Positions 38,249-57,265 of a DNA stretch of 64,000 bases are shown here, in pieces. The DNA lies in assembly GCF_041909755.1 (NCBI RefSeq), contig NZ_JAYRCW010000002.1, forward strand, positions 2,565 to 66,564, read 5' to 3'. Position 1 is the stretch's first letter. Each line of letters opens with the position of its first letter. The position numbers and the translations under genes are program-made. A model generated the notes under the pieces. That model searched no databases and was not told where the DNA came from. It saw nothing but the letters and a program-made list of their open reading frames with translations. The stretch is from Sandaracinobacter sp. (GTDB taxonomy: Bacteria > Pseudomonadota > Alphaproteobacteria > Sphingomonadales > Sphingomonadaceae).

Positions 38249-40327
38249 TCAGCCGAAGGTGCGCTTCAGCGTCAGCGACATGGTGATATGCTCCTGCCGG
38301 GTCCGGAACGCGTGCAGGAAGGGCTCGGGGTTCGACCGATCGGGCGAGAAGAAGGTGCGCTCGCGGTAGAATTTCACGTCCAACAGGTTTTCCGCCCGCA
38401 GCGTCAGCGTGGTGCGCGGATCGGGCCGGAATTCCGCAAACGCTTCCACGAAGGGGTTCTGCCGGAAGTTCCGGTCCTCCTCGTTGCGGCGGAACTGGGT
38501 CGATCCGGGGTTGGAATAGCTGTCCACGCCCCAGGCGAAGCGGCCCAGATCCTGTCGGAACCCCGCATCCAGCAGCCACAGCGTATAGCCGCTGAAATGC
38601 CGGTCCTTCAGCGTGTAGGGATCCTGCACCTCGGTATCGACAAGCGAAAAGCGCATCGTCGCGCGGCCGCCGGGGATGCCCAGCCGTTCCAGCGGCACAT
38701 CCAGGTTCAGCCGCGCAATGCGCATGCGGCCCGAACCCAGGTTTCCGGGTGCGTCCAGCCCGCCTTCCACGGGCACGCGATCCTGAACCTGCTGCACGAA
38801 GTTCATGCCCAGTTCGCCCCGGATCACGCCCGATCCCAGGATGGGCCGTTCCGCCGTCAGCAGGAATTCCCAGGCGGTCTGCGGCACCAGATCGGCATTG
38901 CCGCCGTTCACCCGGTCGTTCGTCAGTTCGGCTAGGCTGATGAAATCACCGAAGTTCAGCTGGTTGACGGTCCGTTCCGCCTTCGCCTGCAGCTGCCAGC
39001 GCCCGGTCCGCCAATCGAGGCTCGCCTTGGGCTTCAGATAGGACAGCGTGCGTTCAGCCGTCGCGTCGCCGCTGACGGTCAGGCGGGATCGTTCGAAGGT
39101 CAGCCCGAAATCGACGCGCAGGCCGTTCGCCAGCTTCCGCCCCATGTTCACGAAGGGCTCAACCCGGATCTCGCGGACGACTGCATTGGCCAGCGGAAGG
39201 TCGATCGGCGTCTGCCCGCCGTCCGCCCCGATCTCATACAGGTCAACCTCGCTGTCGAGCCGGTTCATCACCGCCTCCCCGCCCAGCTCGACCGACCAGC
39301 CGCTGGTTGACGGCAACGACCAGACGAGCCGCGCCACGCTTTCCGCTTCCTTCAGGTGCTGCAGCTGGGAAATCCCGCCCAGGATCTGGCCGGACGCCTG
39401 GTTCAGCACCAGCTCCTCCCGGTCGCGATCGGTGCGGGTGGCCAGCAGGATCAGCTTGATGGCCCCGTCGCCCAGCGGGCGCGTCACGTCGCCGCCCAGC
39501 TCGAACTGGCGGCCACGATAGTCCTGCTCCAGCACATCGTCGCGCACCTGCCCGCCCACGGGCGTCACATGGTTGGTCTGCCACAGCTGGAAGCGGCCGA
39601 TGGCGAAGCGGCCGTTCAGATTGGCCTTCCGGTCTGTTCCGCCATCGTGCGACCATCCGAACGAGACATTCGCTTCCGGATCATGGGTGGCGTTGTGCTT
39701 GTCGCGCACCTCCACCAATTCCCCGCCGGGCAGCGTCGTCAGCACGTCGCGGCCGTAATCGGTGATCTCGTCATTGTTGTAGTCCAGCGCGACATTGAAG
39801 CTGGACCGGCCCCGCTTCAGCAGCGCCGATGCCTGCCCGTCCGCCCGGATCCTGCCTTCGAACGGCCGCCGCAGCCTCAGCTGGGCCGTGCCGGCGACGC
39901 CGGCATCCTCCGTCAGCACCAGGTTCAGCACCTGCGGGCGGCCCGCAAACTCCGCCCCGAAGCCATCGCCGGGCCCCACTTCCACCCGCAGCACCCGCGC
40001 TGCCGGGATCCTGCCCAGAATCGTCTCCAGGTCATCGCTCTTCGTGCTGGGGCGTTCCCCGTTGATCACCACATTGCCGGCCGCCTGCCCGAAGCCGCGC
40101 ACATCCTGGTCGATATCTTCCAGCTGAAATCCCGGCACCCGCTGCACCAGCTGCAGCGCCGTCGCGGGCGCGAAGGTCGTGAAGAAGGCGGCCTGATAAA
40201 CGGTGCGCGCGCCCACCCGTTCCTGGGCATGGCCAGCGGCGGGAAACAGGGCGCAGGCCAGCAGGGCCAACACCGGGCGGCCGACAAGGTTCGACATCTG
40301 AAGAAACATCCCCCCGAAATGGGTCAT
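38249..40327 (-). CDS. TonB-dependent outer-membrane receptor
   Basis: 692 aa at the maximal ORF. Alternative ATGs at 40309 and 40297 both keep the signal peptide ...LVGRPVLALLACALFPAAGHAQ. The plug segment reads VQRVPGFQLEDIDQDVRGFGQAAGNVVINGERP. Confidence 0.85.
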   Translation of the reverse strand: MTHFGGMFLQMSNLVGRPVLALLACALFPAAGHAQERVGARTVYQAAFFTTFAPATALQLVQRVPGFQLEDIDQDVRGFGQAAGNVVINGERPSTKSDDLETILGRIPAARVLRVEVGPGDGFGAEFAGRPQVLNLVLTEDAGVAGTAQLRLRRPFEGRIRADGQASALLKRGRSSFNVALDYNNDEITDYGRDVLTTLPGGELVEVRDKHNATHDPEANVSFGWSHDGGTDRKANLNGRFAIGRFQLWQTNHVTPVGGQVRDDVLEQDYRGRQFELGGDVTRPLGDGAIKLILLATRTDRDREELVLNQASGQILGGISQLQHLKEAESVARLVWSLPSTSGWSVELGGEAVMNRLDSEVDLYEIGADGGQTPIDLPLANAVVREIRVEPFVNMGRKLANGLRVDFGLTFERSRLTVSGDATAERTLSYLKPKASLDWRTGRWQLQAKAERTVNQLNFGDFISLAELTNDRVNGGNADLVPQTAWEFLLTAERPILGSGVIRGELGMNFVQQVQDRVPVEGGLDAPGNLGSGRMRIARLNLDVPLERLGIPGGRATMRFSLVDTEVQDPYTLKDRHFSGYTLWLLDAGFRQDLGRFAWGVDSYSNPGSTQFRRNEEDRNFRQNPFVEAFAEFRPDPRTTLTLRAENLLDVKFYRERTFFSPDRSNPEPFLHAFRTRQEHITMSLTLKRTFG

Positions 40328-43154: not shown

Positions 43155-44219
43155 ATGCGACATCATTTCCTGATTCCGGCCCTGCTGGCGCTTCCGCTGG
43201 CGATCGCCGCGCCGCTCGACGCCCGAAGCGAGGCGCAAGCGCCCGTCGCGCTGGCAAGCCGCGAGGGCAATATGGTCTCCCTGCGCTGGACGGGGCTGAA
43301 AGGCCCGGTGACCGTGTGGCAGATCCCGGCGGCCGACGCGCCGCCGGGGCGCGGACAGAAGCTGGCGGTCGCGGCCGGCGATTCCGCCACCCTCCCGGTC
43401 GCGCCCTGGCCCCGCGCCTATTTCCTGCTGAAGGACGCACGCGGACAAACGGTGCGAACCGCTGAGCGGCTGCTGCCGCTGGATGGCGGCAGCAACTTCC
43501 GCGATCTCGGCGGCTATCGCACGCTCGATGGCCGGGAAACCGCCTGGGGCAGCCTCTATCGGTCTGCCGTGATGTCGGGCCTGACGCCAGATGATTTCCA
43601 GCGGCTGGGCAAGCTCGGCATCCAGACGATCTGCGACTTCCGCGCCACCAACGAGCGGGCCCGCGACGCCGTGAACTGGCCCGAAGGCGTTCAGCCCACG
43701 GTGCTGGCCACCGATTACGGGCTGGATACCGGCGCGCTGGAAGCAATGTTCCGGGGCGGCCCCGTCACTGTCGAGGCAACGCGCAAGGCGATGGCCGGCT
43801 TCTATGCCCAGATGCCCTTCACCTTCGCGGATCAATATGCCCGCATGATGCGCGAACTGGTGGACGGGCGCAGCCCCCTCGCCTTCAACTGCTCCGCCGG
43901 CAAGGATCGCACCGGCCTCGCGGCCGCGCTGCTGCTGACAACGCTGGGCGTGCCCTTCGAAACGGCGATGGCGGACTATCTGCTGTCCAACCAGACCTAC
44001 CGGCCCAAGCCGCCGTCCGCCGACGATCCGACGGCGCGCATGTTCGCCAGCCTCCCGCCGGATGTGACCCAGGCGCTGATGGGCGTGGATCGCAGCTATC
44101 TCGAAGCCAGCTTCGCCGCCATCGAGGCGAAGGGCGGAATCAAGCGCTATCTGGCGGAGGACCTGAAGCTGACGGACGCCGACATCGCGCGCCTCAAACA
44201 ACTGTACCTCGTGGATTGA
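43155..44219 (+). CDS. secreted protein-tyrosine/dual-specificity phosphatase-fold enzyme (Y_phosphatase3-like)
   Basis: ATG 43155 lies 14 nt after the receptor stop. It has a signal peptide (MRHHFLIPALLALPLAIAAPLDA), NFRDLGG and the C-x5-R active site FNCSAGKDRTG. Confidence 0.8.
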   Translation: MRHHFLIPALLALPLAIAAPLDARSEAQAPVALASREGNMVSLRWTGLKGPVTVWQIPAADAPPGRGQKLAVAAGDSATLPVAPWPRAYFLLKDARGQTVRTAERLLPLDGGSNFRDLGGYRTLDGRETAWGSLYRSAVMSGLTPDDFQRLGKLGIQTICDFRATNERARDAVNWPEGVQPTVLATDYGLDTGALEAMFRGGPVTVEATRKAMAGFYAQMPFTFADQYARMMRELVDGRSPLAFNCSAGKDRTGLAAALLLTTLGVPFETAMADYLLSNQTYRPKPPSADDPTARMFASLPPDVTQALMGVDRSYLEASFAAIEAKGGIKRYLAEDLKLTDADIARLKQLYLVD

Positions 44220-44229
44220 CGGCGGCCGC

Positions 44230-45135
44230 TCAGGCCGCGGAGACCTGCTCCCCGGCCTGACGCGGAATCACGTCCACCGCGACGTCCATCGACTGGTCCG
44301 CGCCGCCGTGGAACACCCCGTCCAGCGGGGCGACATCGGCATAGTCGCGGCCCATGGCGACGAAGATGTGGCTGGCATCCGCCAGGCAGTCGTTGGTGGG
44401 ATCGAAGCCGATCCAGCCCAGCTGCTCCCCGCACCACAGCGCCACCCAGGCGTGCATGGCATCCGCCCCCACCAGCCGCGGCTTGCCCGGTGGCGGCAAG
44501 GTGCGCAGATAGCCGCTGACATAGGCGGCCGGGATGCCATGCGCGCGGGCCGCAACGATCATCACATGGGCGAAATCCTGGCAGACGCCCCGCCGCTTGG
44601 CGAAGGCTTCTTCGGGCGGCGTATCCGTCCGGGTCGCCTTCGCGTCATAGCGGAAGCCGGCGTGGATCGCGGCCATCAGCGCGCGGCCGGCCGCAACCAC
44701 CCCGGCCTCATCCCCCAGCATCGGCCGGGCCCAGTCCGCGATGACGGCCGACGGCCGGGCGACGGACGAGGCATAGAGATAGGCAGACGGCGCCAGCGCA
44801 TCCAGCCCGCCGTGGGTCAGCGCCTCCGCGCGGATCTGCCCGACGCTGGGCGCCGGAACCGTCTGCAACAGGAAGCCGGGCTCGGCCACCTCCACGGTGA
44901 AGCGGCTCTCCACCATCAGCCGCTGGATCGGTTCGCCAATCGCCAGCCTGTCGCGGGTCACATGCCAGGGGCCGAACGCCTGCTGCACGGAGGCCGGGGC
45001 CGGATCGATCAGCAGCTCATGGCCGTGCAGGGTCTGCCCCGGCCAGGGTGCGGGCCGCAGGCGCAGGTTGAACCGGGCCAGCCGGACAGGCCCGGTATAA
45101 CGCACGATCGTCCTGTGGCTGACATCATAGATCAT
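44230..45135 (-). CDS. transglutaminase-fold (papain-like Cys-His-Asp) protein
   Basis: 301 aa. N-terminal domain MIYDVSHRTIVRYTGPV...RLRP, then core RGVCQDFAH, MHAWVALW and GFDPTND. Confidence 0.85.
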   Translation of the reverse strand: MIYDVSHRTIVRYTGPVRLARFNLRLRPAPWPGQTLHGHELLIDPAPASVQQAFGPWHVTRDRLAIGEPIQRLMVESRFTVEVAEPGFLLQTVPAPSVGQIRAEALTHGGLDALAPSAYLYASSVARPSAVIADWARPMLGDEAGVVAAGRALMAAIHAGFRYDAKATRTDTPPEEAFAKRRGVCQDFAHVMIVAARAHGIPAAYVSGYLRTLPPPGKPRLVGADAMHAWVALWCGEQLGWIGFDPTNDCLADASHIFVAMGRDYADVAPLDGVFHGGADQSMDVAVDVIPRQAGEQVSAA

Positions 45136-47594
45136 GCAAGAAACTGGCCGCCGCCCTTCCCGTCCGCGCGCTCGATAGGCAGGAAATAGCGCAGCGAAAC
45201 CGCTTCGGACAACGCCCTCAGCCGCTCGTCCGTTTCAGACAGAAGCGCTTCGCCCACATCCCCTGCTGTCAGCCCGGCAAAGGCGGCCCGCGCCGCGCGC
45301 GACGCCCTGAGCGGGGCTTCGGGAAGGCCATCGTCGGCGAGCGGCGGCAATGCCTCGATATGGGCGTTCAACCGGTTCAGCTGGAACATCAGCGACCGGG
45401 GATTGTCCGGATCCAGCAGCAGCAGATCGAACACGGCGTTGCGCGACGGCCGCGCCAGATAGCGGGAGCGATAGGTGATCTGGCTGTCGCACAGGTCCAG
45501 CATCACCGACAGGGCATCGCTTTCGCCCGGCGCGCGCTGCATCTGCTGCACCATCCGGCAGATCGCCAGCGCCCGTTCCAGCCGTCGGCCGATCTCCAGG
45601 AACCGCCAGGCGGGGCTTCGCACCATGTCCTCCGCGATCAGCCCGGCCAGCGCGCTGAACTGTTCGATCAGGTCCCGCACCAGCCGCTGCTGCTCGCTGC
45701 GGTCGGCCGGCACATCGGGCAGCGGCCGGCTTGCCAGCCGCCAGAAATCCGATGCGAAGCGGTCGCGCAGCGCCAGCCCCGTATCCCTCAGCGCCGCCAG
45801 CAACGAGCCCACGGAACCCGGCCGCCCCGATCCGTTTAGCGCCACCCGGCAGATCTCCGGCACCGCACGATCCGGCATTTCCGTCGGCAGGGCATCCCAG
45901 AGGAACAGCAGCTCCGCCAGCAGCTCCCGCACGCCGGTGTCGCGCACGGCCACCGAATCCAGGTCGATGGAACTGCCCAGCATCGACCGCAGCACCCGGA
46001 CAGTCGCCTCCGCCCGTTCCAGATAGCGGCCGAACCAGAACAGATTGTCCGCCGCCTGGCTGGCAAGGATGCCACCCCCGCGCCGGATCGGCGGGTCGGC
46101 GTGAAACAGCGTCGGCAGCTGCACGCGCCCGGCTTCCTCGTCGACGATGCACACGTCGGCAGACAGATCGCCTTCGCCCATCAGCGAGGACCGCAGCCCG
46201 CCATCCGACGCGATGCGGGCAAAGCCGCCCGGCATCACCATCCACTGCCCGTCCCCGCCCCGCGCCACGAAGGCGCGCAAGGTGAAGGGCCGGGGCTCGA
46301 ACCCCTCGCCCGACAGTACGGGGGTGGTGGACAGGTTCACGATCTCCTGGCCGCAGAAGTCCATCGGGCGGCGGGCCATCGCATCCAGCAGCCGGGTCCG
46401 TGCCGCACCGGACAGGTCGGCGCCCGCAACCGCGTGCGCGCCTTCCAGCCCTTCGACCTCGTCGGAAAAGGCCGGCGAGATCAGCAGGTCGTCCAGCCTG
46501 TCGCGCACAAGGGCGGCTTCGTGCGGCTGCCCGCACCACCAGGTCGCCACATTCGGCAGGATCGGCGCCTGTCCGGTCAGCCGCTGGCAGAGCGCGGGCA
46601 GGAACGCCGCGAACGCGGGCGATTCCAGCAGCTCCACGCCCGGCCAGTTCGCCATCGCCAGCCGGCCGTGCGCCCAGGCATCGAACAGATCGGGCACACC
46701 CAGCCGGGATCGGGAATCGAACCGCAGCGGATCCAGCGCATTGGTGTCGATCCAGCGCCAGATGGCATCGATCCGCTTCGGCCCGGCGATCGTCCGCACG
46801 TAAAGGCGGCTGTCCATCACCGTCAGGTCGCGCCCCTCCACCAGCGGAATGCCCAGATAGCGCGCCAGATGCGCCTGTTCGGGATAGCTCTGGTTGAAAC
46901 GCCCCGGCGTCAGCAGCGCGATCCGGGGGGAGGCCCGCTCGCTCCCCCGGGCGATCCCTTCCCGCAGTCCCGCGAAGAAGCCCGCCAGCCGCCGCACATG
47001 GATGCCCGACAGCAGCGAACCCGTTCCGCGCGAAAGCGCAAGCCGGTTTTCCAGCGCATAGCCGATGCCGTTCGCCAGGCGCAGCCTGTCGGCCAGCACC
47101 CGCCACTGCCCGCGCGGGCCGCGCGCAAGGTCCACGGCATAGACATGCAGATAATGATCCCCGCCGGGCTTCAGCCCCACCATGTCGCGCGCGAACCATC
47201 GGCTGCCCGTCACCACCGCCGCCGGCAGATGGCCTTCCGCCACCAGCCGCTGCGCGCCATAGATGTCCGCGATCACCTGTTCCAGCACCTCGGCCCGCTG
47301 GATCAGGCCGCGTTCCACCGTTTCCCATTCCGCCGCGCCGATGATCAGCGGCATCGGGGTCAACGGCCAGCTGCGCTCCTCCATGTCGCCCGCGATGCGA
47401 AAGCTGAAACCCATCTCCTGCACCTGCCGCGCCAGCAGCTCATGCGGAGTCAGGCCTGCGCCGACCGCAAGATCGAACAGCGCGCCGGCGACATTCGACC
47501 ATTTCTCCGCCACCGAATGCGGGGCGTGGCGAAACAGATCGCCGGCGTCGACATCCACCGGATAGTGCCGCAACCGGCTGTCCACCGGCGGCAT
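45132..47594 (-). CDS. fusion of circularly permuted type-2 ATP-grasp domain and alpha-E domain
   Basis: 820 aa. The N-terminal half has the CP ATP-grasp pattern (...PLTPMPLII...AEWETVERGLIQRAEVLE...YAVDLARGPRGQWRVLADR...). The C-terminal half has the alpha-E signature NLFWFGRYLERAEATVRVLR. ATGA overlap with the downstream transglutaminase gene. Confidence 0.8.
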   Translation of the reverse strand: MPPVDSRLRHYPVDVDAGDLFRHAPHSVAEKWSNVAGALFDLAVGAGLTPHELLARQVQEMGFSFRIAGDMEERSWPLTPMPLIIGAAEWETVERGLIQRAEVLEQVIADIYGAQRLVAEGHLPAAVVTGSRWFARDMVGLKPGGDHYLHVYAVDLARGPRGQWRVLADRLRLANGIGYALENRLALSRGTGSLLSGIHVRRLAGFFAGLREGIARGSERASPRIALLTPGRFNQSYPEQAHLARYLGIPLVEGRDLTVMDSRLYVRTIAGPKRIDAIWRWIDTNALDPLRFDSRSRLGVPDLFDAWAHGRLAMANWPGVELLESPAFAAFLPALCQRLTGQAPILPNVATWWCGQPHEAALVRDRLDDLLISPAFSDEVEGLEGAHAVAGADLSGAARTRLLDAMARRPMDFCGQEIVNLSTTPVLSGEGFEPRPFTLRAFVARGGDGQWMVMPGGFARIASDGGLRSSLMGEGDLSADVCIVDEEAGRVQLPTLFHADPPIRRGGGILASQAADNLFWFGRYLERAEATVRVLRSMLGSSIDLDSVAVRDTGVRELLAELLFLWDALPTEMPDRAVPEICRVALNGSGRPGSVGSLLAALRDTGLALRDRFASDFWRLASRPLPDVPADRSEQQRLVRDLIEQFSALAGLIAEDMVRSPAWRFLEIGRRLERALAICRMVQQMQRAPGESDALSVMLDLCDSQITYRSRYLARPSRNAVFDLLLLDPDNPRSLMFQLNRLNAHIEALPPLADDGLPEAPLRASRAARAAFAGLTAGDVGEALLSETDERLRALSEAVSLRYFLPIERADGKGGGQFLA

Positions 47595-47611
47595 GGATAC
47601 AATGGCCGCGG

Positions 47612-50600
47612 TCAGCGTCCGTCCCCCCGGGGTGCAGCCCGCCTGAGGTCCAGCGACATCGGGAACTCGCCCGGCAGCTCCTCCGCCGGCATCTCGCGCG
47701 CGCCGGGCGAATGGCCATGATCCTGAAAGCGGCTCCGGCGCCGCGCTTCCGCCTCATAGCCGTTCACCGGCACATCGTCATAGGATCGCCCGCCCGGGTG
47801 CGCGACATGATAGACGCAGCCGCCCAGTGAACGGCCGTTCCAGCTGTCGAGGATGTCGAAGGTCAGCGGCGCCTGCGCCTTCATCAGAGGGTGCAGGCAG
47901 TTGGCAGGCGCCCAGGCCTTGTAGCGCACCCCGCCCACGGCCTCGCCGGACACGCCCGTCGGGTGCATCGGAACCCGCCGCCCGTTGCAGCTGATGATGT
48001 GGCGGCCGGGCACCAGCCCCGTCGCGCGCAGCTGAAGCCGTTCGGTCGAGCTGTCCACATAACGCACCGTGCCGCCGATCGCGCCGGTTTCCCCCAGCAC
48101 GTTCCACGGCTCCAGTGCATGGGAAACTTCCAGAGAAACGCCGCCGCCCTCCACCACCCCATGCACCGGGAAGCGGAACTGGCGCTGCGCCTCGAACCAG
48201 ACGGGATCGAAATCAAAGCCCGCCTCGCGCAGATCCGCCAGCACCTCCAGGAAATCGGCCCACACGAAATGCCCCAGCATGAAGCGGTCGTGCAGCGCCG
48301 TGCCCCAGCGCACCAGATGGCCCTCGCGCGGCTGCTTCCAGAACATCGCCGTCAGCGCGCGCAGCAACAGCTGCTGTGCAAGGCTCATCTTCGCGTCCGG
48401 CGGCATCTCGAAGCCGCGAAATTCCACCAGCCCCAGCCGCCCTGTCGGGCCATCGGGGGAAAACAGCTTGTCGATGCAGATCTCGGTGCGGTGGGTGTTG
48501 CCCGTCACATCCACCAGCAGGTTGCGGAACAGCCGGTCCACCACCCACGGCAGCGGCTGGCCCGCCTGCGGCCCCGGCACCTGCGCCAGCGCGATTTCCA
48601 GCTCGTACAGGCTGTCGTGCCGGGCCTCGTCGATGCGCGGGGCCTGGCTGGTCGGGCCGATGAACAGGCCGGAAAACAGGTACGACAGCGAAGGGTGCCG
48701 CTGCCAGTAGAGGACGAAGCTCTTCAGCAGGTCCGGGCGGCGGATGAAGGGGCTGTCGGCGATGCTGGCGCCGCCAAGCACGATATGGTTGCCCCCGCCC
48801 GTGCCGACAGAGCGGCCGTCCACCATGAACTTGTCGGCCGTCAGCGCGCAGCTGCGGGCGCAATCATACAACGTCTCCGTCACCTCGACGAGCTCGCGCC
48901 AGCTGCCAGTGGGGTGGATGTTCACTTCGATCACGCCCGGATCCGGCGTCACTTTCAGCACGATCAGGCGCGGGTCCGGCGGCGGCGGATAGCCCTCGAT
49001 CCTGACCGGCAGGCCGCTCTCTTCGGCCACCGTCTCGATGGCGGCCACAAGATCCAGATAATCCTCCAGCGATTCCACCGGCGGGATGAAGACGGACAGA
49101 TGATCACCGCGCGGCTCGACAGTGACGGCAGTTCTGACAGCGCCTTCGATCGCCACCTGCTCCACCCGCTGCTGCGCGGCGCCTGCCGGGCCTTCCACGG
49201 CGATGGCGGCCTGTTCAGCCAGCGCCTCGCGGACCTGTTCGCCGCGCTCCACCTGCTCGGCGCGGAAATCGGCGAGCGGCCGGCGCGGCTCCGCCGTGTC
49301 GCGCGGGTGGATGTAGGGATAGGCCGATTCCGGCACATACGGCAGCGACCCGAGCGGCAGGCGATAGCCCAGCGAACTGTCCCCCGGCACCGCAAACAGC
49401 GCGCCGCGCCGCACCTTCCACTGCTCGCTCCGCCACCGCGGCATCGGCGACGCAGCAGCCTGCCAGCGCTGAACCGGCAGCACATAGCCCACCGGCTTCG
49501 AAAGCCCGCGCTGGAAGGTTCGCATGAAGCGTTCGCGCACTTCCGGATCATCCAGCGCCGGATCGTCGGGTTTCGTGTTGGCCGGCAGTTCCGCCTCCTT
49601 CACGATCCACTCAACGGCATCCTCATACACCGGCTGCACGAAGCCGGCTTCCAGCCCCAGATTGCCGGCCGCCGCCTTCAGGAAGCGCTCGGCAGAGCCG
49701 CAATCCACCTCCACCTCCGCCACTTCGTCGGGCATCCGCACTCCGGCCAGCAGCGCCTCGTCGCGCCAGATCGGCACGCCATCCCTGCGCCAATAGATGG
49801 AATAGCCCCAGCGCGGCAGGCTCTCGCCCGGATACCATTTGCCTTGCCCATGATGCAGCAGCGATCCGGGCGCGAACTTCGCCCGCAACATTCGGATCAG
49901 CCGGTCGGCATAGGCGGCCTTGGTGGGGCCGACAGCGGCGCTGTTCCATTCCGGGGCCTGAAAGTCGCTGTCGGCGATGAAGGTGGGTTCGCCGCCCATC
50001 GTCAGCCGCACGTCCAGCGCCTGAAGTTCGGCATCAACCTTGTCGCCCAGCGCCAGCAGCGCGGCCCAGCGGCCATCGGTGAAGGGCCTGGTGATGCGCA
50101 CGGCCTCGGCAATGCGCGACACGCTCATCTCGAAATGGAAATCCACCTCGGCCGGCTCCGCCAGCCCGGTAATCGGCGCGGCAGAGCGATAGTGCGGCGT
50201 TGCGGCCAGCGGGATATGCCCTTCGCCCGCGAACAGGCCCGATGTCGGGTCCATCCCCACCCAGCCAGCGCCGGGGATATAGGCTTCCGCCCAGGCGTGC
50301 AGGTCGGTGAAATCCGCTTCAGGCCCTTTCGGCCCCACCTTCGGCTCCACATCGGCCTTCATCTGGATCAGGTAGCCGGATACGAACCGTGCCGCGAACC
50401 CCAGCCGCCGCAGCAGCTGCACCAGCAGCCAGGAACTGTCCCGGCAAGAGCCCGTCCCCAGCGTCAGCGTGTCTTCCGGCGCCTGCACGCCCGGCTCCAT
50501 CCGCACCACATAGCCCACGCGCGATTGCAACGCCTGGTTCACCGCCACAAGGAAGTCGATGGTGCGTCCCGAATGGCCGGCGAATTCGGCCACCAGCGCC

Positions 50601-50980
50601 TCGAACGCGGCCCCCGTCTCGGTCGCCTCGAAATAGGCGGCCAGATCCTCCTTCAAGGCCGGGTCATAGCCGAAGGGCATTTCCTCCGCCTGCGGGTCCA
50701 GGAAGAAATCGAACGGGTTGATCACGGCGAGGTCGGCGAGCAGGTCCACCTCGATCTGGAAATGATCGACCTTCTCCGGAAACACGATCCGCGCCTGCCA
50801 GTTGCCGTGCGGATCCTGCTGCCAGTTCAGGAAATGGTTCGAAGGGCTGATCTTCAGCGAATAGTTGGGCACGGCCGTGCGGCTGTGCGGGGCCGGGCGC
50901 AGCCGCACGATCTGCGGCCCCAGCGCAATGGGCCGGCTATAGCGATAGCGGGTCAGATGGTGCAGGCCGGCCTTGATCAT
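47612..50980 (-). CDS. large transglutaminase-fold protein with DUF2126-type C-terminal region
   Basis: 1122 aa from ATG 50980 ([18 protein letters not shown]..., the same N-terminal pattern as the 301-aa protein). An alternative ATG is at 51010. The core reads [16 protein letters not shown] and GMDPTSG. The track ORF extends to 51142 across the trxC 3' end. Confidence 0.85.
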
Positions 50981-51011
50981 CGCCGGATTGTGCGTCGCAG
51001 GCTGCTGCATC

Positions 51012-51027
51012 GCAACAATATTGTTGC
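51012..51027. promoter_or_regulatory. perfect 16-bp palindrome GCAACAAT-ATTGTTGC (candidate operator)
   Basis: It lies in the gap between trxC and the DUF2126 gene, 32-47 nt upstream of ATG 50980. Confidence 0.45.
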
Positions 51028-51077
51028 CGTCGGCCGCCCTTACGGACCAGCGCGCCGCCTGCCCATCTATCCGGGGC

Positions 51078-51503
51078 CTAAAGCGCCCGTCCGGCGAAGG
51101 CGCGGATCTGCGGCAGGGACAGCGCGCCCGAAACGCGGTCAACCTCCCGCCCGCCCTTCAACAGCAGCATTGTCGGAACCGATTGGATGCCCAGCGCCGC
51201 GGCCAGCGCGGGCGCGGCATCGATGTCCACCTTGGCCAGCCGGATGCGCGGCTCCAGCTCTGCGGCAGCGGCTTCGAAGGCCGGGGCCATCGCCCGGCAC
51301 GGCCCGCACCATTGCGCCCAGAAATCCACCAGCAGCGGCAGCGTTCCGCGATCCCGGTGCAGGCGGAACCCGGCCTCGTCCAGTTGCAGCGCGCGGCCCG
51401 TGAACAGGGGCGATTTGCAGCGCCCGCAGGTCGGCCTGTCGGCCAGGCGCCCGGTGGGCACCCGGTTCACCGCGCCGCATCCGGGGCAGGGCAGTTGTTC
51501 CAT
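51078..51503 (-). CDS. trxC: thioredoxin 2 (zinc-finger thioredoxin)
   Basis: 141 aa with N-terminal CPGC...CGRC zinc-finger cysteines followed by the [10 protein letters not shown] active site. Architecture as in E. coli TrxC. Confidence 0.9.
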
Positions 51504-51507
51504 CGTC

Positions 51508-51891
51508 TCAATCCCCGATCGGCTGCATGTCCAGCCGGGAGGCCGGCAGCCCGGCGTCGCACACGTCGCACAACGCCTCCATCACCGCGCGCACCCGCGC
51601 ATCGGCCAGGCGGTAGCGAACCTGCTGCCCTTCGCGCTGCGGCGCAACGACACCGGATTCGCGCAGAAGCGCCAGATGCTGCGAGACGCGTGATTGCGAA
51701 AGCCCGGTCAGCGCCACCATCTCCCCCACCGTGGGGCGGCGCCCGCCGTCCATGTCGCTCATGCCCATGCGGCACAGCATCCGCAGCCGGTCTGGATTGG
51801 CGAGCAGCTTCAGCACCCGGGCCATCGCATCGGCATCGCGCCCCAGCGGCATCATCTCGCCCTCCTCGGGCGGTGCATGTGCAGTCATCAT
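51508..51891 (-). CDS. ArsR/SmtB-family transcriptional regulator
   Basis: 127 aa from ATG 51891. It reads VLKLLANPDRLRMLCRM, VGEMVALTGLSQSRVSQHLALLRESGVV and QVRYRL. C-terminal cysteines occur in CDVCD. Confidence 0.8.
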   Translation of the reverse strand: MMTAHAPPEEGEMMPLGRDADAMARVLKLLANPDRLRMLCRMGMSDMDGGRRPTVGEMVALTGLSQSRVSQHLALLRESGVVAPQREGQQVRYRLADARVRAVMEALCDVCDAGLPASRLDMQPIGD

Positions 51892-51904
51892 CGTATCGCG
51901 TCTC

Positions 51905-52747
51905 TCATTGCCTGCGGGCCGAAAGCAGCCAGACCGCAGCGTCCATCGGCACACCCTCGTCTGTCGCCACGCCCGCATACAGGTCTTCCAGCGCCGCCGT
52001 GGCCGCCGCCAGCACACCTGGCCCGGCCGCCTCGGCCAGTTCGCCGACAGAAAAAGCCCCAAGGGCAAAGGCGGCCGCCCGGGCCGGTGTCGCCCCCGGC
52101 CCGCCCACCAGCATCGGCTGTTCCAGCAGCTGCCGGTCAAAGCCGGTGAAACCGGCCTCTTCCAGCAGCGCCCGGTGAAAATCCGGATCCGACAGCTGGA
52201 ACGGCCCGGGTGCCAGCGGCTCGGCCTTTGGCAGCTCCACATGCGCGCCCACCACGCGCCGCATCTCCATCATCCAGGGATTGCGGCGGGGTTCCGCCCA
52301 CACCGCCATGTTCAGCTGCGCGCCCGGCGCCAGCAACGACGCCAGGTGCCGGAACGCCGCCGGCGGGTCCGCGAAGAACATCACGCCGAAGCGCGACATC
52401 AGTCGGTCGAAGGGTCCGCCGCCGGGCCGGGCGGTCGCCGCATCCCCCACCTCGAACCGCACCTGCGGCAGGCCTGTGGCGCGTCGCACCGCTTCGGCCA
52501 CCAGCGCGGGGGAAATATCCAGCCCCAGCGCCAGCCCCTGCGGCCCGACCGCCTCGCCGATCCGCCGTGTGGTCCAGCCGCCGCCGCAGCCGATGTCCAG
52601 CACCCGCTCTCCGGCGCGGATGCCGGCCCGATCCACCAGCGCCGCACCAAAGGCGGCCAGCTGGGCTTCCATCAGATCGACATCGCGCAGCCAGCGAAGC
52701 CCGCGCTCCCCCGACCAGTCCTCGGGCATCTGTGCGGCGGCGCTCAT
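51905..52747 (-). CDS. class I SAM-dependent methyltransferase
   Basis: SAM motif I is ERVLDIGCGGGWTT. ATG 52747 forms an ATGA overlap with the cydX stop. The track start at 52753 is GTG. Confidence 0.8.
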   Translation of the reverse strand: MSAAAQMPEDWSGERGLRWLRDVDLMEAQLAAFGAALVDRAGIRAGERVLDIGCGGGWTTRRIGEAVGPQGLALGLDISPALVAEAVRRATGLPQVRFEVGDAATARPGGGPFDRLMSRFGVMFFADPPAAFRHLASLLAPGAQLNMAVWAEPRRNPWMMEMRRVVGAHVELPKAEPLAPGPFQLSDPDFHRALLEEAGFTGFDRQLLEQPMLVGGPGATPARAAAFALGAFSVGELAEAAGPGVLAAATAALEDLYAGVATDEGVPMDAAVWLLSARRQ

Positions 52748-52857
52748 TTCCACCAGGGCTCGCCATCGTCGTCGGCATGAAATTCATGCCACATCCCGTT
52801 CAGGATGCCGAACCCCACCGCGAGGCCGAGGCCGAGAACCCATGTGAAATACCACAT
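52744..52857 (-). CDS. cydX: cytochrome bd oxidase small subunit CydX
   Basis: The 37-aa product MWYFTWVLGLGLAVGFGILNG... matches the MWYF.W.LG start of E. coli CydX. It lies 11 nt downstream of cydB. Confidence 0.75.
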   Translation of the reverse strand: MWYFTWVLGLGLAVGFGILNGMWHEFHADDDGEPWWK

Positions 52858-52868
52858 CGCGGACCCTT

Positions 52869-54017
52869 TCAGTAGTAATCGCCCGAGGAGCGGACCTGTT
52901 CCGTCGTCACCCGCCCGAACAGCACCTTGAACACCCAGGCCGTGTACAGCAGCACCAGCGGCAGCAGGATCACCGTCGCCAGCAGCATGATCCACAAGGT
53001 GAGGTGGCTGGACGAGGCATTCCAGACCGTGAGGCTGGAGGACGGATCGACCGTGCTGGGCAGGATCACGGGGAACATCGACAGGCCCACGGTGGAAATG
53101 ATGCCGACAACGGCAGCGGACGACCCGATGAAGACACCCTTATCCCAGCGCCGGGCGATGCCCAGCATGGCCAGCGCCGTTCCGGCAAAGCCCAGAACCG
53201 GGGCCAGCAGCATCCAGGGGTGGGCGGCATAATTCTTCACCCAGGCGCCCGGCGACGCCACCGCGCCGTGCAGCAACGGGTTTGAGGGGCCGTTCGGATC
53301 CACGCCGGCCGCGATCTCCACCCCCATGTCGCCCATCGCCACGAACAGCCCGCCGCCCGCGAACAGCAGCAGGCTCAGCACGCCTGCCCATTGCCCCAGC
53401 CGGCGCGCCCGGTCCAGCACGGGCCCATGCTCGATCTTCAGGCTGAGCCACCCGGCCCCGTGCAGCACCAGCATCGAGACAGAGAGCAGCCCGGCGAGCA
53501 ACGTGAAGGGGGAGAACAGGTCCATGAGCCCGCCATCCCAGAAGGCGCGAAGGTCGCTGTCCAGGTGGAACGGCACGCCCTTCAGCACGTTGCCGACCGC
53601 CACGCCGAACACCAGCGCGGGCACGAAACCGCCCACGAACAGCGCCCAGTCCCAACGGGCGCGCCAGGCCGGATCATCCTTCTTCGACCGGTATTTGAAG
53701 CCGACAGGTCGCAGGATCAGCGCCATCAGCACCAGGAACATCGCGAGATAAAATCCGGAAAAGCTGATCGCATACACATGCGGCCAGGCCGCGAAGATCG
53801 CGCCGCCGCCCAGGATGAACCACACCTGGTTGCCTTCCCAGGTCGCGCCGATCGAGTTGATCACCAGCCGCCGCTCCTCGTCGGTGCGGGCGACGAAGGG
53901 CAGTACGGCAGCCACCCCCAGATCGAAACCGTCCGTCAGCGCGAACCCGATCAGCAGCACCCCCAGCAGCAGCCACCAGATCAGGCGAAGCGTCTCATAG
54001 TCGAAGGGAATGGGCAT
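52869..54017 (-). CDS. cydB: cytochrome bd ubiquinol oxidase subunit II
   Basis: ATG 54017 follows GAGGAGAGAGG and gives MPIPFDYETLRLIWWLLLGVLLIGFALTDGFDLG, the canonical CydB N-terminus. Confidence 0.92.
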   Translation of the reverse strand: MPIPFDYETLRLIWWLLLGVLLIGFALTDGFDLGVAAVLPFVARTDEERRLVINSIGATWEGNQVWFILGGGAIFAAWPHVYAISFSGFYLAMFLVLMALILRPVGFKYRSKKDDPAWRARWDWALFVGGFVPALVFGVAVGNVLKGVPFHLDSDLRAFWDGGLMDLFSPFTLLAGLLSVSMLVLHGAGWLSLKIEHGPVLDRARRLGQWAGVLSLLLFAGGGLFVAMGDMGVEIAAGVDPNGPSNPLLHGAVASPGAWVKNYAAHPWMLLAPVLGFAGTALAMLGIARRWDKGVFIGSSAAVVGIISTVGLSMFPVILPSTVDPSSSLTVWNASSSHLTLWIMLLATVILLPLVLLYTAWVFKVLFGRVTTEQVRSSGDYY

Positions 54018-54028
54018 CGCCTCTCTCC

Positions 54029-55612
54029 TCACTCGGCCGGCAGCGGCACGAAGCCGCCGCGCGCGCGATCCTCGGTCGCGGCCGGGCCGCGTTCCTCGCC
54101 CCTGTCAGGCCCGTGCCGGATCGCCGCCAGCATCAGCCGCACCATGATCACCGCCAGGATTCCATAGGCGAGCGTGAAGCCCGCGATCGTCGTCCAGATC
54201 TGCGGCAGGGTCAGGCTGGACGAGGCAAGGAAGGTGGGCAGCGCCCCTTCCACCGCCCAGGGCTGGCGGCCATATTCCGCCAGCACCCAGCCCATTTCAG
54301 CCGCCGCCCAGGGCAGCGGGATCACCGCGACCGCCAGCTTCTGGAACCAGCGCACCCCGAAGCGACGCTTGCTGGCCAGCCAGAAGGCCGTTCCGAAAAA
54401 GGCGATGAAGAAGAAACCCAGCCCCGCCATGCCCCGGAAGGCCCAGAACAGCACCGGCACATTGGGCACCGTGCTCCAGGCCGCCTTGTCGATGTCGTCG
54501 GCAGTCGCCGCGCGCGGATCGGCCACGAAGCGCTTCAGCAGCATCGCATAGCCAAGGTCGGTGCGGTGCTGCTCGAACTGCTCCCGCGCCGCCAGGTCCG
54601 TCCGGTCCACCTTCAGCTTCTCCAGCGCGTCATAGGCGAGGATTCCGCGCCCGATGCGCACCTCGGCGGTTTCCACCAGCTCGCGGATGCCCGTGACTTC
54701 GCCGGTGAACGACCGCGTCGCGATCAGCCCCAGCACGGCAGGCACGCGGATCTCGAAATGCGTCACCTGGGCCTGCTTGTCCGGGATGCCGAAGATGGTC
54801 AGCCCGGCGGGCGCGGGTTCGGTTTCCCACATGGCCTCGATGGCGGCCAGCTTCATCTTCTGGTTGTCTGTCAGCGCATAGCCCGATTCATCGCCCAGCA
54901 CGACGACCGACAGCGAAGAGGCAAGCCCGAAGGCCGCCGCCACCACGAAGCTGCGCCGGGCGATCGGCCCGAAGCGCCCCTTCAGCAGATACCAGCTGGA
55001 AACCCCCAGCACGAACACCGCCCCCGTCACATAGCCGGCGGAAACCGTGTGCACGAATTTCGCCTGCGCCACCGGGTTCATCAGCACCGCCATGAAATCG
55101 GTGACTTCCATGCGCATTGTTTCCGGGTTGAAGCGCGAGCCGACCGGGTTCTGCATCCAGCCGTTGGCGACAAGGATCCAGAGCGCAGACAGGTTCGACC
55201 CCAGCGCCACCATGAAGGTGACGAACAGGTGCCCCACGCGGGTCAGCCGGTCCCAGCCGAAGAACATCAGCCCCACGAAGGTCGCCTCCAGGAAGAAGGC
55301 CATCAGCCCCTCGATCGCCAGCGGCGCCCCGAAGATGTCGCCGACATAGTGGCTGTAGTAGGACCAGTTGGTGCCGAACTGGAACTCCATGGTGATGCCG
55401 GTCGCCACGCCCAGCACGAAGTTGATCCCGAACAGCTTGCCCCAGAAGCGTGTGGCGTCGCGCCACACCGCCTTGCCCGTCATCACATAGACACTCTCCA
55501 TGATGACGAGCATGAAGGAGAGGCCGAGCGTGAGGGGGACGAACAGGAAATGGTACATCGCCGTCAGCGCGAACTGCAGGCGGGACATCTCGACGACGGC
55601 CAGATCGACCAT
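54029..55612 (-). CDS. cydA: cytochrome bd ubiquinol oxidase subunit I
   Basis: 527 aa with LSRLQFALTAMYHFLFVPLTLG and the Q-loop region GDESGY...KLAAIEAMWET. Confidence 0.95.
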   Translation of the reverse strand: MVDLAVVEMSRLQFALTAMYHFLFVPLTLGLSFMLVIMESVYVMTGKAVWRDATRFWGKLFGINFVLGVATGITMEFQFGTNWSYYSHYVGDIFGAPLAIEGLMAFFLEATFVGLMFFGWDRLTRVGHLFVTFMVALGSNLSALWILVANGWMQNPVGSRFNPETMRMEVTDFMAVLMNPVAQAKFVHTVSAGYVTGAVFVLGVSSWYLLKGRFGPIARRSFVVAAAFGLASSLSVVVLGDESGYALTDNQKMKLAAIEAMWETEPAPAGLTIFGIPDKQAQVTHFEIRVPAVLGLIATRSFTGEVTGIRELVETAEVRIGRGILAYDALEKLKVDRTDLAAREQFEQHRTDLGYAMLLKRFVADPRAATADDIDKAAWSTVPNVPVLFWAFRGMAGLGFFFIAFFGTAFWLASKRRFGVRWFQKLAVAVIPLPWAAAEMGWVLAEYGRQPWAVEGALPTFLASSSLTLPQIWTTIAGFTLAYGILAVIMVRLMLAAIRHGPDRGEERGPAATEDRARGGFVPLPAE

Positions 55613-55702
55613 GAATCACCTCATAGAGTCGCAGGCAGTGAGTCGCTTGCCGGCCCGCCGCCGCACCTTATATGAGGATTTCCTAATTAAAAAGCCGATG
55701 GA

Positions 55703-57265
55703 ATGAAAGCGTCAGAACAGCGCACCCGGCACCATGGCAGCCATGCCGCGACCATCAGCTGGCTGGCCGATGCGCTGGGCGCTGCGCTGGCGGCCGCAGG
55801 GCTGGCGCTGGGCGTCGCCGCCGTCGCACATCCCGGATCGGCCGCCATGTGGCAGGCGGCGCTGCTGCTGGGCGCGGGCGGGGTGGTTCGCGCCGCCGCC
55901 CAATGGATGGCGACCGATCTCGGCCTGAAGGCCGCCTTCGCACGGAAGGCTGCGGAGCGCGCCCGCCACTGGCCCGCGCTGCTCGCGGCGCCGCGCGCCA
56001 CCAGCCTCTCGGGCGACGATCTGGGCCGCGCCATCGATTCGATCGAGATGCTGGAAGGGCTGGAGGCCCGCTTCCGCCCCCTGCGCCTCGCAGCCGTGGC
56101 GGCGCCGCTTCTCATCGCGCTGATCGTGGCGGCGGCCAGCCCGGTTTCGGCCGTCATCCTGCTGGCCACCCTGCCCCCCTTCATCGCAGGGCTGGCGCTG
56201 GCGGGCACCGCCGCGCGCGCCACGGCGGCGCGCCAGCTGGGCGCATTGCGGGATCTGAACGCGCTGTTCGCCGACAGGCTGCGGGCGCTGCCCGAAATCC
56301 GCCATTTCCGGGCGGAAGATCGCATCCTCCGCCAGATGGGAGACAGCAGCCGGGCGCTGGCGGATCGCACCATCGCCACGCTCAGGATCGCCTTCCTGTC
56401 GGGCGGCGTGATCGAGTTCTTCGCGGCAATCGCCGTCGCGCTCGTCGCCCTCTACGCGGGCTTCAGCCTGCTGGGCATCCTGCCGTTCCGCGTGCCGGAA
56501 ACGCTGTCGCTGCTGTCGGCCTTCTTCGTGCTGGCGATGGCGCCGGAATTCTACCTGCCGTTCCGCCGCCTCGCCGCCGCCTACCACGACAAGCAGCTGG
56601 GCGAGGCGGCAGAAGCCGCCCTGGCAGCGCCCGATGCCGTCCCCGCGCCGGGAACCGCCCCCTTTGCCGGCGTTTCGGCAACCGGCCTGCTGCTGCGCCA
56701 TGCCGAGGGCCCCCTGATCGGGCCGTTGGACTTCCGGCTGGACCCAACCGGCCTCATTGCGCTGGTCGGCCCCACCGGATCCGGCAAATCCTCCGTGCTG
56801 GCCGTCGTCGCAGGCCGCGCGCCCATCGTGGGCGGAACGCTGACATGGGCCGAACGCGCACCGCCGCCGCTGGCCTGGGCCGGTCAGCGGGCCCTGATTC
56901 TGGCCGGCACCCTTGCCGACAACCTCGGCCTCGCCCGCCCCGGCGCACCAGACGCCGAGCTGGAGACGATGGCGGCCCGCCTCGGCCTTTCGCCGCTGCT
57001 GGCCACGCGCGGTCTCCACGGCGCGATCGACTGGCGCGGATCGGGCCTTTCCGGCGGAGAGCGCAGGCGCATCGGCGTGGCGCGGGCGCTTCTGTCCGGC
57101 CGGCCGCTGCTGCTGCTCGACGAGCCCACCGCCGATCTCGACGCCGACAGCGCTGCACTGGTCCGCGCCGCAGTGGAAGAGGCTGGCCGCAGCCGCGCCA
57201 TCCTCGTCGCCACGCATGATGACCAGCTCGCCGCCCTTGCCGCCCAAGTGGTGCGGCTGCCATGA
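55703..57265 (+). CDS. cydD: thiol-reductant ABC exporter subunit CydD
   Basis: 520 aa with an N-terminal six-helix membrane domain, Walker A GPTGSGKSS, signature LSGGERRR and Walker B LLLLDEP. Divergent from cydA. Confidence 0.8.
   Translation: MKASEQRTRHHGSHAATISWLADALGAALAAAGLALGVAAVAHPGSAAMWQAALLLGAGGVVRAAAQWMATDLGLKAAFARKAAERARHWPALLAAPRATSLSGDDLGRAIDSIEMLEGLEARFRPLRLAAVAAPLLIALIVAAASPVSAVILLATLPPFIAGLALAGTAARATAARQLGALRDLNALFADRLRALPEIRHFRAEDRILRQMGDSSRALADRTIATLRIAFLSGGVIEFFAAIAVALVALYAGFSLLGILPFRVPETLSLLSAFFVLAMAPEFYLPFRRLAAAYHDKQLGEAAEAALAAPDAVPAPGTAPFAGVSATGLLLRHAEGPLIGPLDFRLDPTGLIALVGPTGSGKSSVLAVVAGRAPIVGGTLTWAERAPPPLAWAGQRALILAGTLADNLGLARPGAPDAELETMAARLGLSPLLATRGLHGAIDWRGSGLSGGERRRIGVARALLSGRPLLLLDEPTADLDADSAALVRAAVEEAGRSRAILVATHDDQLAALAAQVVRLP

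Follow-up and report, generated by a model that had tools for sequence, protein, structure and literature searches.

Comparative genomics, reportedly that of Iyer et al. (2009, Mol BioSyst 5:1636), defined a bacterial combination of genes for ATP-grasp, Alpha-E and transglutaminase-like domains, for which a role in peptide synthesis or peptide tagging was put forward and which is often accompanied by the proteasome-related protein Anbu (PMC5666114, PMC6376114, PMC3235984). Here we describe a three-gene cassette of this kind in a 64-kb stretch of DNA from Sandaracinobacter sp. (contig NZ_JAYRCW010000002.1; the whole stretch is called the window), where it lies on the minus strand between positions 44230 and 50980. 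The closest described system is the Rv2566/Rv2567/Rv2569c-type cluster (COG4196-COG2308/2307-COG1305), which has the same three architectures in the same order and with the same tight coupling; we found no essential difference from it, the window copy being the plain three-gene form. An earlier note on this DNA, made from the sequence alone, had named the Mycobacterium tuberculosis Rv2566-Rv2569c neighbourhood as an example of the triad. The literature agrees, as Rv2566 is described as a transglutaminase joined to a ligase (PMC2588565) and Rv2567 as an uncharacterised ATP-binding candidate (bioRxiv 10.64898/2026.04.15.718621). The statement in the same note that no substrate or product has been established for the triad also holds (PMC5666114, PMC6376114), and we found no later paper reporting one. 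Experiments on Anbu operons gave a single positive result, the release of phosphate from ATP by the operon-encoded ATP-grasp protein of Yersinia bercovieri (PMC6376114). Reports on the RloABC and RimK systems (PMC11957051) and on an 'inactive transglutaminase' of Shewanella (PMC12096838) concern different systems and were set aside.

The three co-directional minus-strand genes were reproduced by the list of open reading frames (ORFs) and their translations. Gene 1 (47612..50980, 1122 aa) joins a transglutaminase-like module to a DUF2126 region, gene 2 (45132..47594, 820 aa) is a fusion of a circularly permuted type-2 ATP-grasp domain with an Alpha-E domain, and gene 3 (44230..45135, 301 aa) encodes a stand-alone transglutaminase-like, putative thiol enzyme. 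Every motif that had been quoted for the three proteins was found in the translations, among them GVCQDFAH, MHAWVALW and GFDPTND in gene 3 and NLFWFGRYLERAE in gene 2. Genes 2 and 3 overlap by 4 nt at ATGA (45132-45135) and genes 1 and 2 are separated by 17 nt (47595-47611), both as noted before, and this spacing implies co-translation. The three frames are coding, since the G + C content at their third codon positions (GC3) is 0.84-0.88; the long plus-strand ORFs over the cassette are shadow ORFs of a 68% GC genome. Gene-calling pipelines start gene 1 at ATG 51010, ten codons upstream of ATG 50980. The latter fits better, because homologues begin at MxI[KR] and because the longer call would start within a conserved DNA element, the dyad described below.

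The domain assignments given in the earlier note for the three genes were checked with Pfam profile models, and all hits were far above the curated cut-offs. No NCBIfam model matched any of the three proteins, the defence-protein models of PADLOC gave no match for them, an Rfam search gave no match near the operon, and no paralogue of gene 1, 2 or 3 was found elsewhere in the 64 kb. Proteins of this type are annotated in RefSeq as 'transglutaminase family protein' and 'circularly permuted type 2 ATP-grasp protein'. The cassette is real, intact, and already described and annotated, and the window copy is an ordinary, plain three-gene member of its family.

The earlier note had called the triad widespread, and the searches bear this out. 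An exhaustive search for relatives of gene 1 gave 12110 clusters at 50% identity with E ≤ 1e-3, of which 2662 had E ≤ 1e-30. A scan of genomes, one per species, gave at least 600 matching stretches, the best 80 of which were analysed as loci; a second set comprised 80 metagenome loci, about 60 of them from sphingomonads with a gene 1 that is 70-80% identical to that of the window. The best match of gene 1 (P0001, 99% identity) lies on a metagenome contig of the JGI (Joint Genome Institute) with the same gene order (L001), followed by matches of 75-83% identity in Novosphingobium, Sphingobium and relatives. The best 80 genome loci span Alpha-, Beta-, Gamma- and Deltaproteobacteria, Bacteroidota, Verrucomicrobiota, Nitrospirales and Acidobacteriota. 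Fifty of these extend 6.5 kb or more past the downstream end of gene 1 and were informative for gene order. In 42 of the 50, the fused ATP-grasp/Alpha-E gene and then the transglutaminase gene come next on the strand of gene 1; these loci include Alpha-, Beta-, Gamma- and Deltaproteobacteria, Bacteroidota and Acidobacteriota. A Nitrospirales locus (L070) has the same order up to the end of its contig, and a Planctomycete shares it too. In one of the 50, the ATP-grasp and Alpha-E matches fall in different reading frames and no downstream transglutaminase gene was detected. The fusion of ATP-grasp with Alpha-E was present in 66 of the 67 loci in which both halves were found. The plain three-gene form, as in the window, predominates in Proteobacteria. 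More elaborate arrangements occur: an extra, unfused ATP-grasp and Alpha-E pair precedes gene 1 in the Planctomycete L164 and in Geoalkalibacter (L166), and a Burkholderia locus (L078) carries in a row ATP-grasp, Alpha-E, transglutaminase, gene 1, fused gene 2 and gene 3. In Beggiatoa, gene 1 stands on its own. With about 6.7 kb, the cassette ranks among the larger conserved segments of bacterial genomes to which no function has been assigned; it occurs in many phyla, and one copy is that of M. tuberculosis.

The largest part of gene 1, residues 275-1113 (47642..50158, minus strand), matches the Pfam family DUF2126 over the whole of its model (1276 bits, E = 0, 826 of 826 positions, 1-826). 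The presence of DUF2126 had been recognised in the earlier note; its own identity as a second putative amidoligase, resembling glutamine synthetase (GS), was overlooked there because it was treated only as a long C-terminal region. Pfam describes the family as 'Putative amidoligase enzyme', and by profile searches Iyer et al. 2008 placed it in the carboxylate-amine ligase superfamily of GS, GCS2 and PafA, with Rv2566 as an example (PMC2588565). By sequence, searches of the PDB with gene 1 (a single sequence and two profiles) matched the transglutaminase part alone, and Pfam at E ≤ 10 gave no weak GS or GCS2 match on the DUF2126 region.

Structure prediction pointed in the direction of the GS family. 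A first AlphaFold model, of full-length gene 1 with 40 close sequences, had a mean pLDDT (predicted local distance difference test) of 62, and Foldseek matched only its transglutaminase domain. A more diverse alignment of 93 sequences (50-83% identity), used for residues 275-1122, gave a second model with a pLDDT of 82.4 and a predicted template modelling score (pTM) of 0.86. With this model, about 30 of the top 38 Foldseek matches in the PDB were GS-family enzymes, at probabilities of up to 0.96, E-values of only about 1e-2 and low TM-scores of 0.15-0.3 over alignments of about 280-300 columns. They included GS, gamma-glutamylmethylamide synthetase (GmaS), the PA5508-like 4hpp and 1-naphthylamine gamma-glutamyl synthetase. 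These gamma-glutamyl ligases, which belong with the wider GCS2/YbdK and PafA groups, are the best structural matches of DUF2126, whereas gene 1 differs from them in having no detectable sequence similarity, about twice the size, inserted and C-terminal domains, and an N-terminal fusion to a thiol enzyme. At the C-terminal end of the region the model has a separate beta-sandwich domain, which Foldseek matched to folds like that of Cu,Zn superoxide dismutase. The model is consistent with a GS-like core and stops short of proving it. The motifs that are invariant over the 93 DUF2126 sequences include GGEPTF, GTGGGNH, HRxE and ExRxxEMPP. GGEPTF, GTGGGNH and ExRxxEMPP seem to resemble the metal- and nucleotide-site motifs of GS.

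The N-terminal module of gene 1, residues 1-273 (50162..50980, minus strand), contains Bact_transglu_N (residues 6-81, 86 bits) and Transglut_core (residues 129-245, 63 bits), for which gene 3 scores 64 and 75 bits, respectively. Over its whole length it is paralogous to gene 3 (25% identity over 279 aa, E 5e-13), and Foldseek matched it to 3isr, a putative cysteine protease of Cytophaga hutchinsonii, at E 1e-10. The triad Cys179-His228-Asp244 is invariant in 40 close relatives. The catalytic Cys is retained in the window copy and is missing in 4 of 17 divergent representatives, which suggests that in some lineages the domain can serve as a non-catalytic binding module. The four homologues without the Cys (P0146, P0167, P0174 and P0188) are the most divergent full-length ones (35-40% identity), and one of them also lacks the His; as all four retain the DUF2126 region, the thiol domain appears to have been inactivated in these lineages.

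In gene 2, CP_ATPgrasp_2 matches residues 82-462 (46209..47351, minus strand; 4e-129, 431 bits), with an overlapping match to the CP_ATPgrasp_1 model, and Alpha-E matches residues 510-804 (45183..46067, minus strand; 1e-63, 216 bits), where the ER motif NLFWFGRYLERAE is present. Residues 54-467 match PDB 3n6x, a structural genomics entry with the title 'putative glutathionylspermidine synthase', at E 1.6e-59 over 414 aligned residues. In sphingomonads and Rhizobiales gene 2 has a conserved C-terminal tail that consists of RYFLQ, 10-14 variable residues and then [L/F]-[L/G]-A (homologues L005-L161); the window copy ends in GGGQFLA (45132-45190), and in other clades the protein ends directly after the RYF/AYL motif. 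The tail might serve as a degradation or docking signal, comparable with an ssrA-like -LAA.

Gene 3 carries Bact_transglu_N (residues 3-82) and Transglut_core, keeps the Cys-His-Asp triad in GVCQDFAH, MHAW and GFDPTND, and matches the PDB entries 6g49 (6.7e-11) and 3isr (1.8e-9). Its homologue in M. tuberculosis, Rv2569c, has been reported to be a 'serine protease' that cleaves E-cadherin and other proteins, with an activity that serine-protease inhibitors blocked and that E-64 and N-ethylmaleimide left unaffected (PMC11081392). If gene 3 were likewise a secreted general protease or virulence factor, its operon partners would be incidental. We regard this as extremely improbable. The authors of that report themselves note that such an inhibitor profile is at odds with its cysteine-peptidase domain (PMC11081392). 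Gene 3 begins with MIYDVSHRTIVRYTG, an N-terminus that lies within the Bact_transglu_N domain and has by inspection, no predictor of signal peptides having been run, no hydrophobic, signal-peptide-like stretch; the gene is translationally coupled to the cytoplasmic ligases, and the cassette is common in free-living bacteria of soil and water. The protease claim does not fit the fold, offers no explanation of the operon and, in our view, does not define the family.

Because DUF2126 is itself a putative amidoligase, the cassette carries two putative ATP-dependent ligases that are unrelated to each other, and with them two putative thiol enzymes of the papain fold; all four are apparently cytoplasmic. 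We propose, with about an even chance of being right, that it is a cytoplasmic module which makes and trims an amide or gamma-glutamyl conjugate. The cassette would be self-contained, with a promoter region of its own, and would carry out amide-bond chemistry driven by ATP. The GS-like domain of gene 1 would act as the first ligase and the permuted ATP-grasp domain of gene 2, with its Alpha-E helical domain, as the second, each converting a carboxylate to an acyl-phosphate that is then joined to an amine. The N-terminus of gene 1 and gene 3 would hydrolyse or transfer the amide or gamma-glutamyl linkage through a Cys thioester. The product could be a small non-ribosomal peptide, a gamma-glutamyl-type conjugate or such a group on a protein, built and trimmed by one module, and it would most likely be used under nutrient limitation, especially of nitrogen, by analogy with homologous clusters of other proteobacteria. 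The domain identities, catalytic motifs and gene order on which this scheme draws are established here or elsewhere, as are ATP turnover by a homologue and the induction of homologues by nitrogen limitation. That the three proteins themselves act as ligases and amidases is inferred, as are the kind of substrate and the physiological signal that would switch the cassette on in this organism.

A similar logic is found in two known systems. Glutathionylspermidine synthetase/amidase (GspSA) is an amidase fused to an ATP-dependent ligase, and GshA and GshB are two ligases of different folds that act serially; the cassette likewise couples papain-like thiol amidases to ligases and has two ligases of different folds. 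It differs from GspSA in its amidase fold, which is transglutaminase-like rather than CHAP, and in the permutation of its ATP-grasp domain, and the trxC neighbourhood that might suggest a thiol product is not conserved.

Several observations weigh against the proposed conjugate-forming module. In the literature, a ligation or amidase reaction has been demonstrated for no enzyme of the triad, and we found no ligase assay of any member of the transglutaminase-DUF2126 family. The proteins of Anbu operons formed no stable complexes and had no peptidase activity in vitro (PMC6376114, PMC5666114). A lysate with Rv2567, a candidate GABA-trehalose (gamma-aminobutyric acid-trehalose) synthetase, was inactive in that reaction, which excludes that one product only (bioRxiv 10.64898/2026.04.15.718621). 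The structural likeness of DUF2126 to GS scores weakly (E about 1e-2, TM-scores 0.15-0.3). Seven of the 50 informative loci have gene 1 without genes 2 and 3, and a Sphingomonas plasmid has the reverse, a gene 2/3 pair that lacks gene 1; a substrate common to all three may therefore not exist. Finally, no sigma-54 box was found at the window cassette, which has a different, sphingomonad-specific dyad instead, so that nitrogen control in the window is an extrapolation only.

The Anbu operon is the second described relative. Its permuted ATP-grasp, Alpha-E and transglutaminase-like proteins are of the same families as those of the cassette; it is equally uncharacterised, and in Pseudomonas nitrogen limitation induces it (PMC5666114, PMC6376114, PMC3235984, PMC8050072). 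The window cassette differs in having no Anbu gene within 10 kb, in the fusion of ATP-grasp to Alpha-E, which are separate in the Anbu operon, and in the additional GS-like gene 1. This kinship raises the alternative of protein tagging similar to pupylation, in which a ligase would add a tag, the transglutaminase-like enzymes would process or remove it, and Anbu or other proteases would degrade the tagged protein. Transglutaminases modify Gln side chains of proteins, which would suit such a role. The GS-like ligase belongs to the superfamily of PafA (PMC2588565), and paralogous operons with ATP-grasp, Alpha-E and transglutaminase genes carry Anbu (PMC5666114, PMC6376114, PMC8050072). However, junctions of -4 and 17 nt leave no space for an ORF similar to Pup, no small ORF is conserved in the flanks, no Anbu or proteasome gene was found among the Pfam-annotated genes within 10 kb, the GGGQ near the C-terminus of gene 2 is not conserved among homologues, and neither complexes nor activity of Anbu were obtained in vitro (PMC6376114). 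We consider tagging of this kind unlikely, with a small but appreciable chance. For the cassette as a whole, knowledge of what it makes would provide functions for several Pfam families at once (DUF2126, CP_ATPgrasp_1/2, Alpha-E and Bact_transglu_N), and could explain Anbu.

Evidence on regulation comes mainly from homologous clusters and points consistently to nitrogen limitation. In Burkholderia cenocepacia, I35_5080-5083 is among the clusters most strongly dependent on NtrC and sigma-54 under nitrogen limitation (PMC5491218), and by gene order it holds a true orthologue of gene 1. In Pseudomonas putida, nitrogen limitation induces PP_2685-2688, whose promoter has been tried out as a sensor of that condition (PMC3325844, PMC8050072). 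In marine metagenomes, domains of the cassette co-vary with urea-metabolism genes (PMC3597751). The earlier view that no phenotype is established thus needs to be amended, since induction of homologous clusters by nitrogen limitation has been published (PMC5491218, PMC3325844, PMC8050072); as to substrate and product, it stands. Among our own loci, boxes of the sigma-54 type (-24/-12), with the form TGGCAT-N5-TTGC (TGGCATAAGTCTTGCG, TGGCACAACTCTTGCC), precede the gene 1 ORF by no more than about 60 nt in six loci of gammaproteobacteria (among L063-L081), namely five of Pseudomonas and one of an unclassified gammaproteobacterium (L080). This suggests that in those gammaproteobacteria NtrC/RpoN control covers the three-gene cassette and not the Anbu operon alone. 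The lead towards nitrogen limitation that Burkholderia and Pseudomonas provide holds for true gene 1 orthologues.

These data also bear on a different explanation, nitrogen scavenging. Here the transglutaminase domain of gene 1 would be a glutaminase or deamidase and the ammonia or amine that it frees would be captured by the fused GS-like domain, with genes 2 and 3 as a second pair. Such an architecture would be new, analogous to that of glutamine amidotransferases or to the PuuA/PuuD gamma-glutamylation cycle. In its favour, Pfam finds a putative thiol amidase fused to a putative ATP-dependent ligase, the best-matching folds are those of enzymes that gamma-glutamylate ammonia or amines (GS, GmaS, 4hpp and 1-naphthylamine GS), nitrogen limitation induces homologous clusters (PMC5491218, PMC3325844, PMC8050072), and the domains correlate with urea-metabolism genes (PMC3597751). 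Against this, the catalytic Cys of gene 1 is missing in 4 of the 17 divergent clades, the full-length model (pLDDT 62) is too poor to reveal an interdomain channel, and the window has no nitrogen-type promoter. We judge this scavenging role to be rather improbable. The chance is low that gene 1 is a new amidotransferase or gamma-glutamyl-cycle enzyme forming, with the gene 2/3 pair, an unrecognised route of nitrogen salvage or a pathway to a nitrogen-starvation metabolite; if true, such a pathway would exist in many bacterial species, including M. tuberculosis.

Upstream of the window gene 1, a dyad of the form TGTTGC-N3-GCA(A/G)CA was found at 51003..51017 on the minus strand (TGTTGCGATGCAGCA), a candidate operator or -35 region. 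It has no mismatch, and no further copy with one mismatch or less occurs in the 64 kb. A perfect 16-bp palindrome, GCAACAATATTGTTGC, overlaps it at 51012..51027 (one match versus 0.08 expected). With at most one mismatch the dyad is present in 39 of 64 sphingomonad loci (among L002-L004 and L082-L143) and not in 20 non-sphingomonad loci. In 52 of the 64 its start lies between -39 and -36 relative to the ATG, regardless of the upstream gene. It is sphingomonad-specific and may be an operator overlapping a -35 element; we found no match of the dyad to a known regulator motif. The spacing of a candidate promoter is TTGCGA, 17 nt, CACAAT and 6 nt to ATG 50980. With the TTGC of the dyad as the -35 element, the gene 1 transcript might be leaderless or nearly so, a weak inference from the spacing. 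A generic promoter scan of 43900-56000 gave no sigma-70 site. Being fixed in position, the dyad could serve for finding the regulator of the cassette in sphingomonads.

The genes upstream of the cassette gave rise to the remaining alternative. Pfam and the gene calls confirmed the arsR-like gene and trxC that had been noted there: trxC (Thioredoxin and Zn_ribbon_Thio2 domains) at 51078-51503 and a gene with an ArsR-type helix-turn-helix (HTH) domain at about 51508-51900, both on the minus strand. In 5′ to 3′ order the strand carries cydA, cydB, cydX, an S-adenosylmethionine-dependent (SAM) methyltransferase gene, the ArsR-type HTH gene, the gene for the Trx2-type zinc-ribbon thioredoxin and the cassette; downstream, a tyrosine phosphatase gene in convergent orientation reaches to 10 nt from the gene 3 stop codon. 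In the remaining alternative, the cassette would belong functionally with trxC, arsR and cytochrome bd in a pathway for a thiol or redox metabolite, in which a small thiol similar to glutathione or glutathionylspermidine is made and recycled. This position directly downstream of cydABX, the methyltransferase, arsR and trxC on the same strand speaks for it, and so do the two-ligase layout, reminiscent of GshA and GshB, the amidase-ligase fusion, reminiscent of glutathionylspermidine synthetase/amidase, and the deposition of 3n6x as a 'putative glutathionylspermidine synthase'. We nevertheless consider it very unlikely. The linkage to trxC, arsR or cyd genes, which the earlier note had proposed to survey, did not recur: not one of the 80 genome loci has them beside the cassette, nor has any of the 80 metagenome loci within 3 kb upstream, the roughly 60 closely related sphingomonads included, and the methyltransferase gene is absent from that position as well. 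A thioredoxin gene lies within 10 kb of the cassette in two of the 80 genome loci, adjacent in neither. Among the 64 sphingomonad loci no upstream gene family is common to more than four, and the dyad keeps its distance from the ATG whatever gene lies upstream. A redox link is unsupported because 0 of 160 related loci place trxC, arsR or cyd beside the cassette, whose position next to trxC and arsR in the window is a local accident. For research on the family, the redox lead can be dropped. The window copy adds little, its sole unusual trait, the trxC/arsR/cyd neighbourhood, being unconserved.

The upstream stretch has some features of its own. The genes from cydABX through the methyltransferase and ArsR to Trx2 occupy 51078-55612 on the minus strand, and divergent cydDC-like ABC (ATP-binding cassette) transporter genes follow at 55703-58845 on the plus strand. 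The joining of the methyltransferase-ArsR-Trx2 trio to cytochrome bd is unusual, and it lies beside the cassette in no related locus surveyed. The ORF list gives a 244-aa ORF at 51508-52242 with the ArsR HTH in its last third only, overlapping by about 340 nt, in another frame, the methyltransferase ORF at 51905-52753; the true ArsR gene starts at an internal codon near 51891, as the 127-aa gene call on L001 shows. Elsewhere in the window, a 692-aa ORF at 38249-40327 on the minus strand has a coding-type GC3 of 0.85 and no Pfam match at E ≤ 1e-3; in L001 it is likewise called as a gene, domain-less and of 682 aa.

All-against-all clustering of the flanking ORFs of the 80 genome loci gave no other family in more than 19 of them. 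Occasional neighbours, each in a minority of loci, are a PotA-like ABC ATPase, LysR and a zinc-ribbon protein with Peptidase_Mx. The gene for the last of these ('putative zinc-binding metallopeptidase') directly follows gene 3 in 7 of the 80 loci, for example at 14907-15977 in L166 and at 15437-16585 in L005, and may be an occasional fourth component of the cassette.

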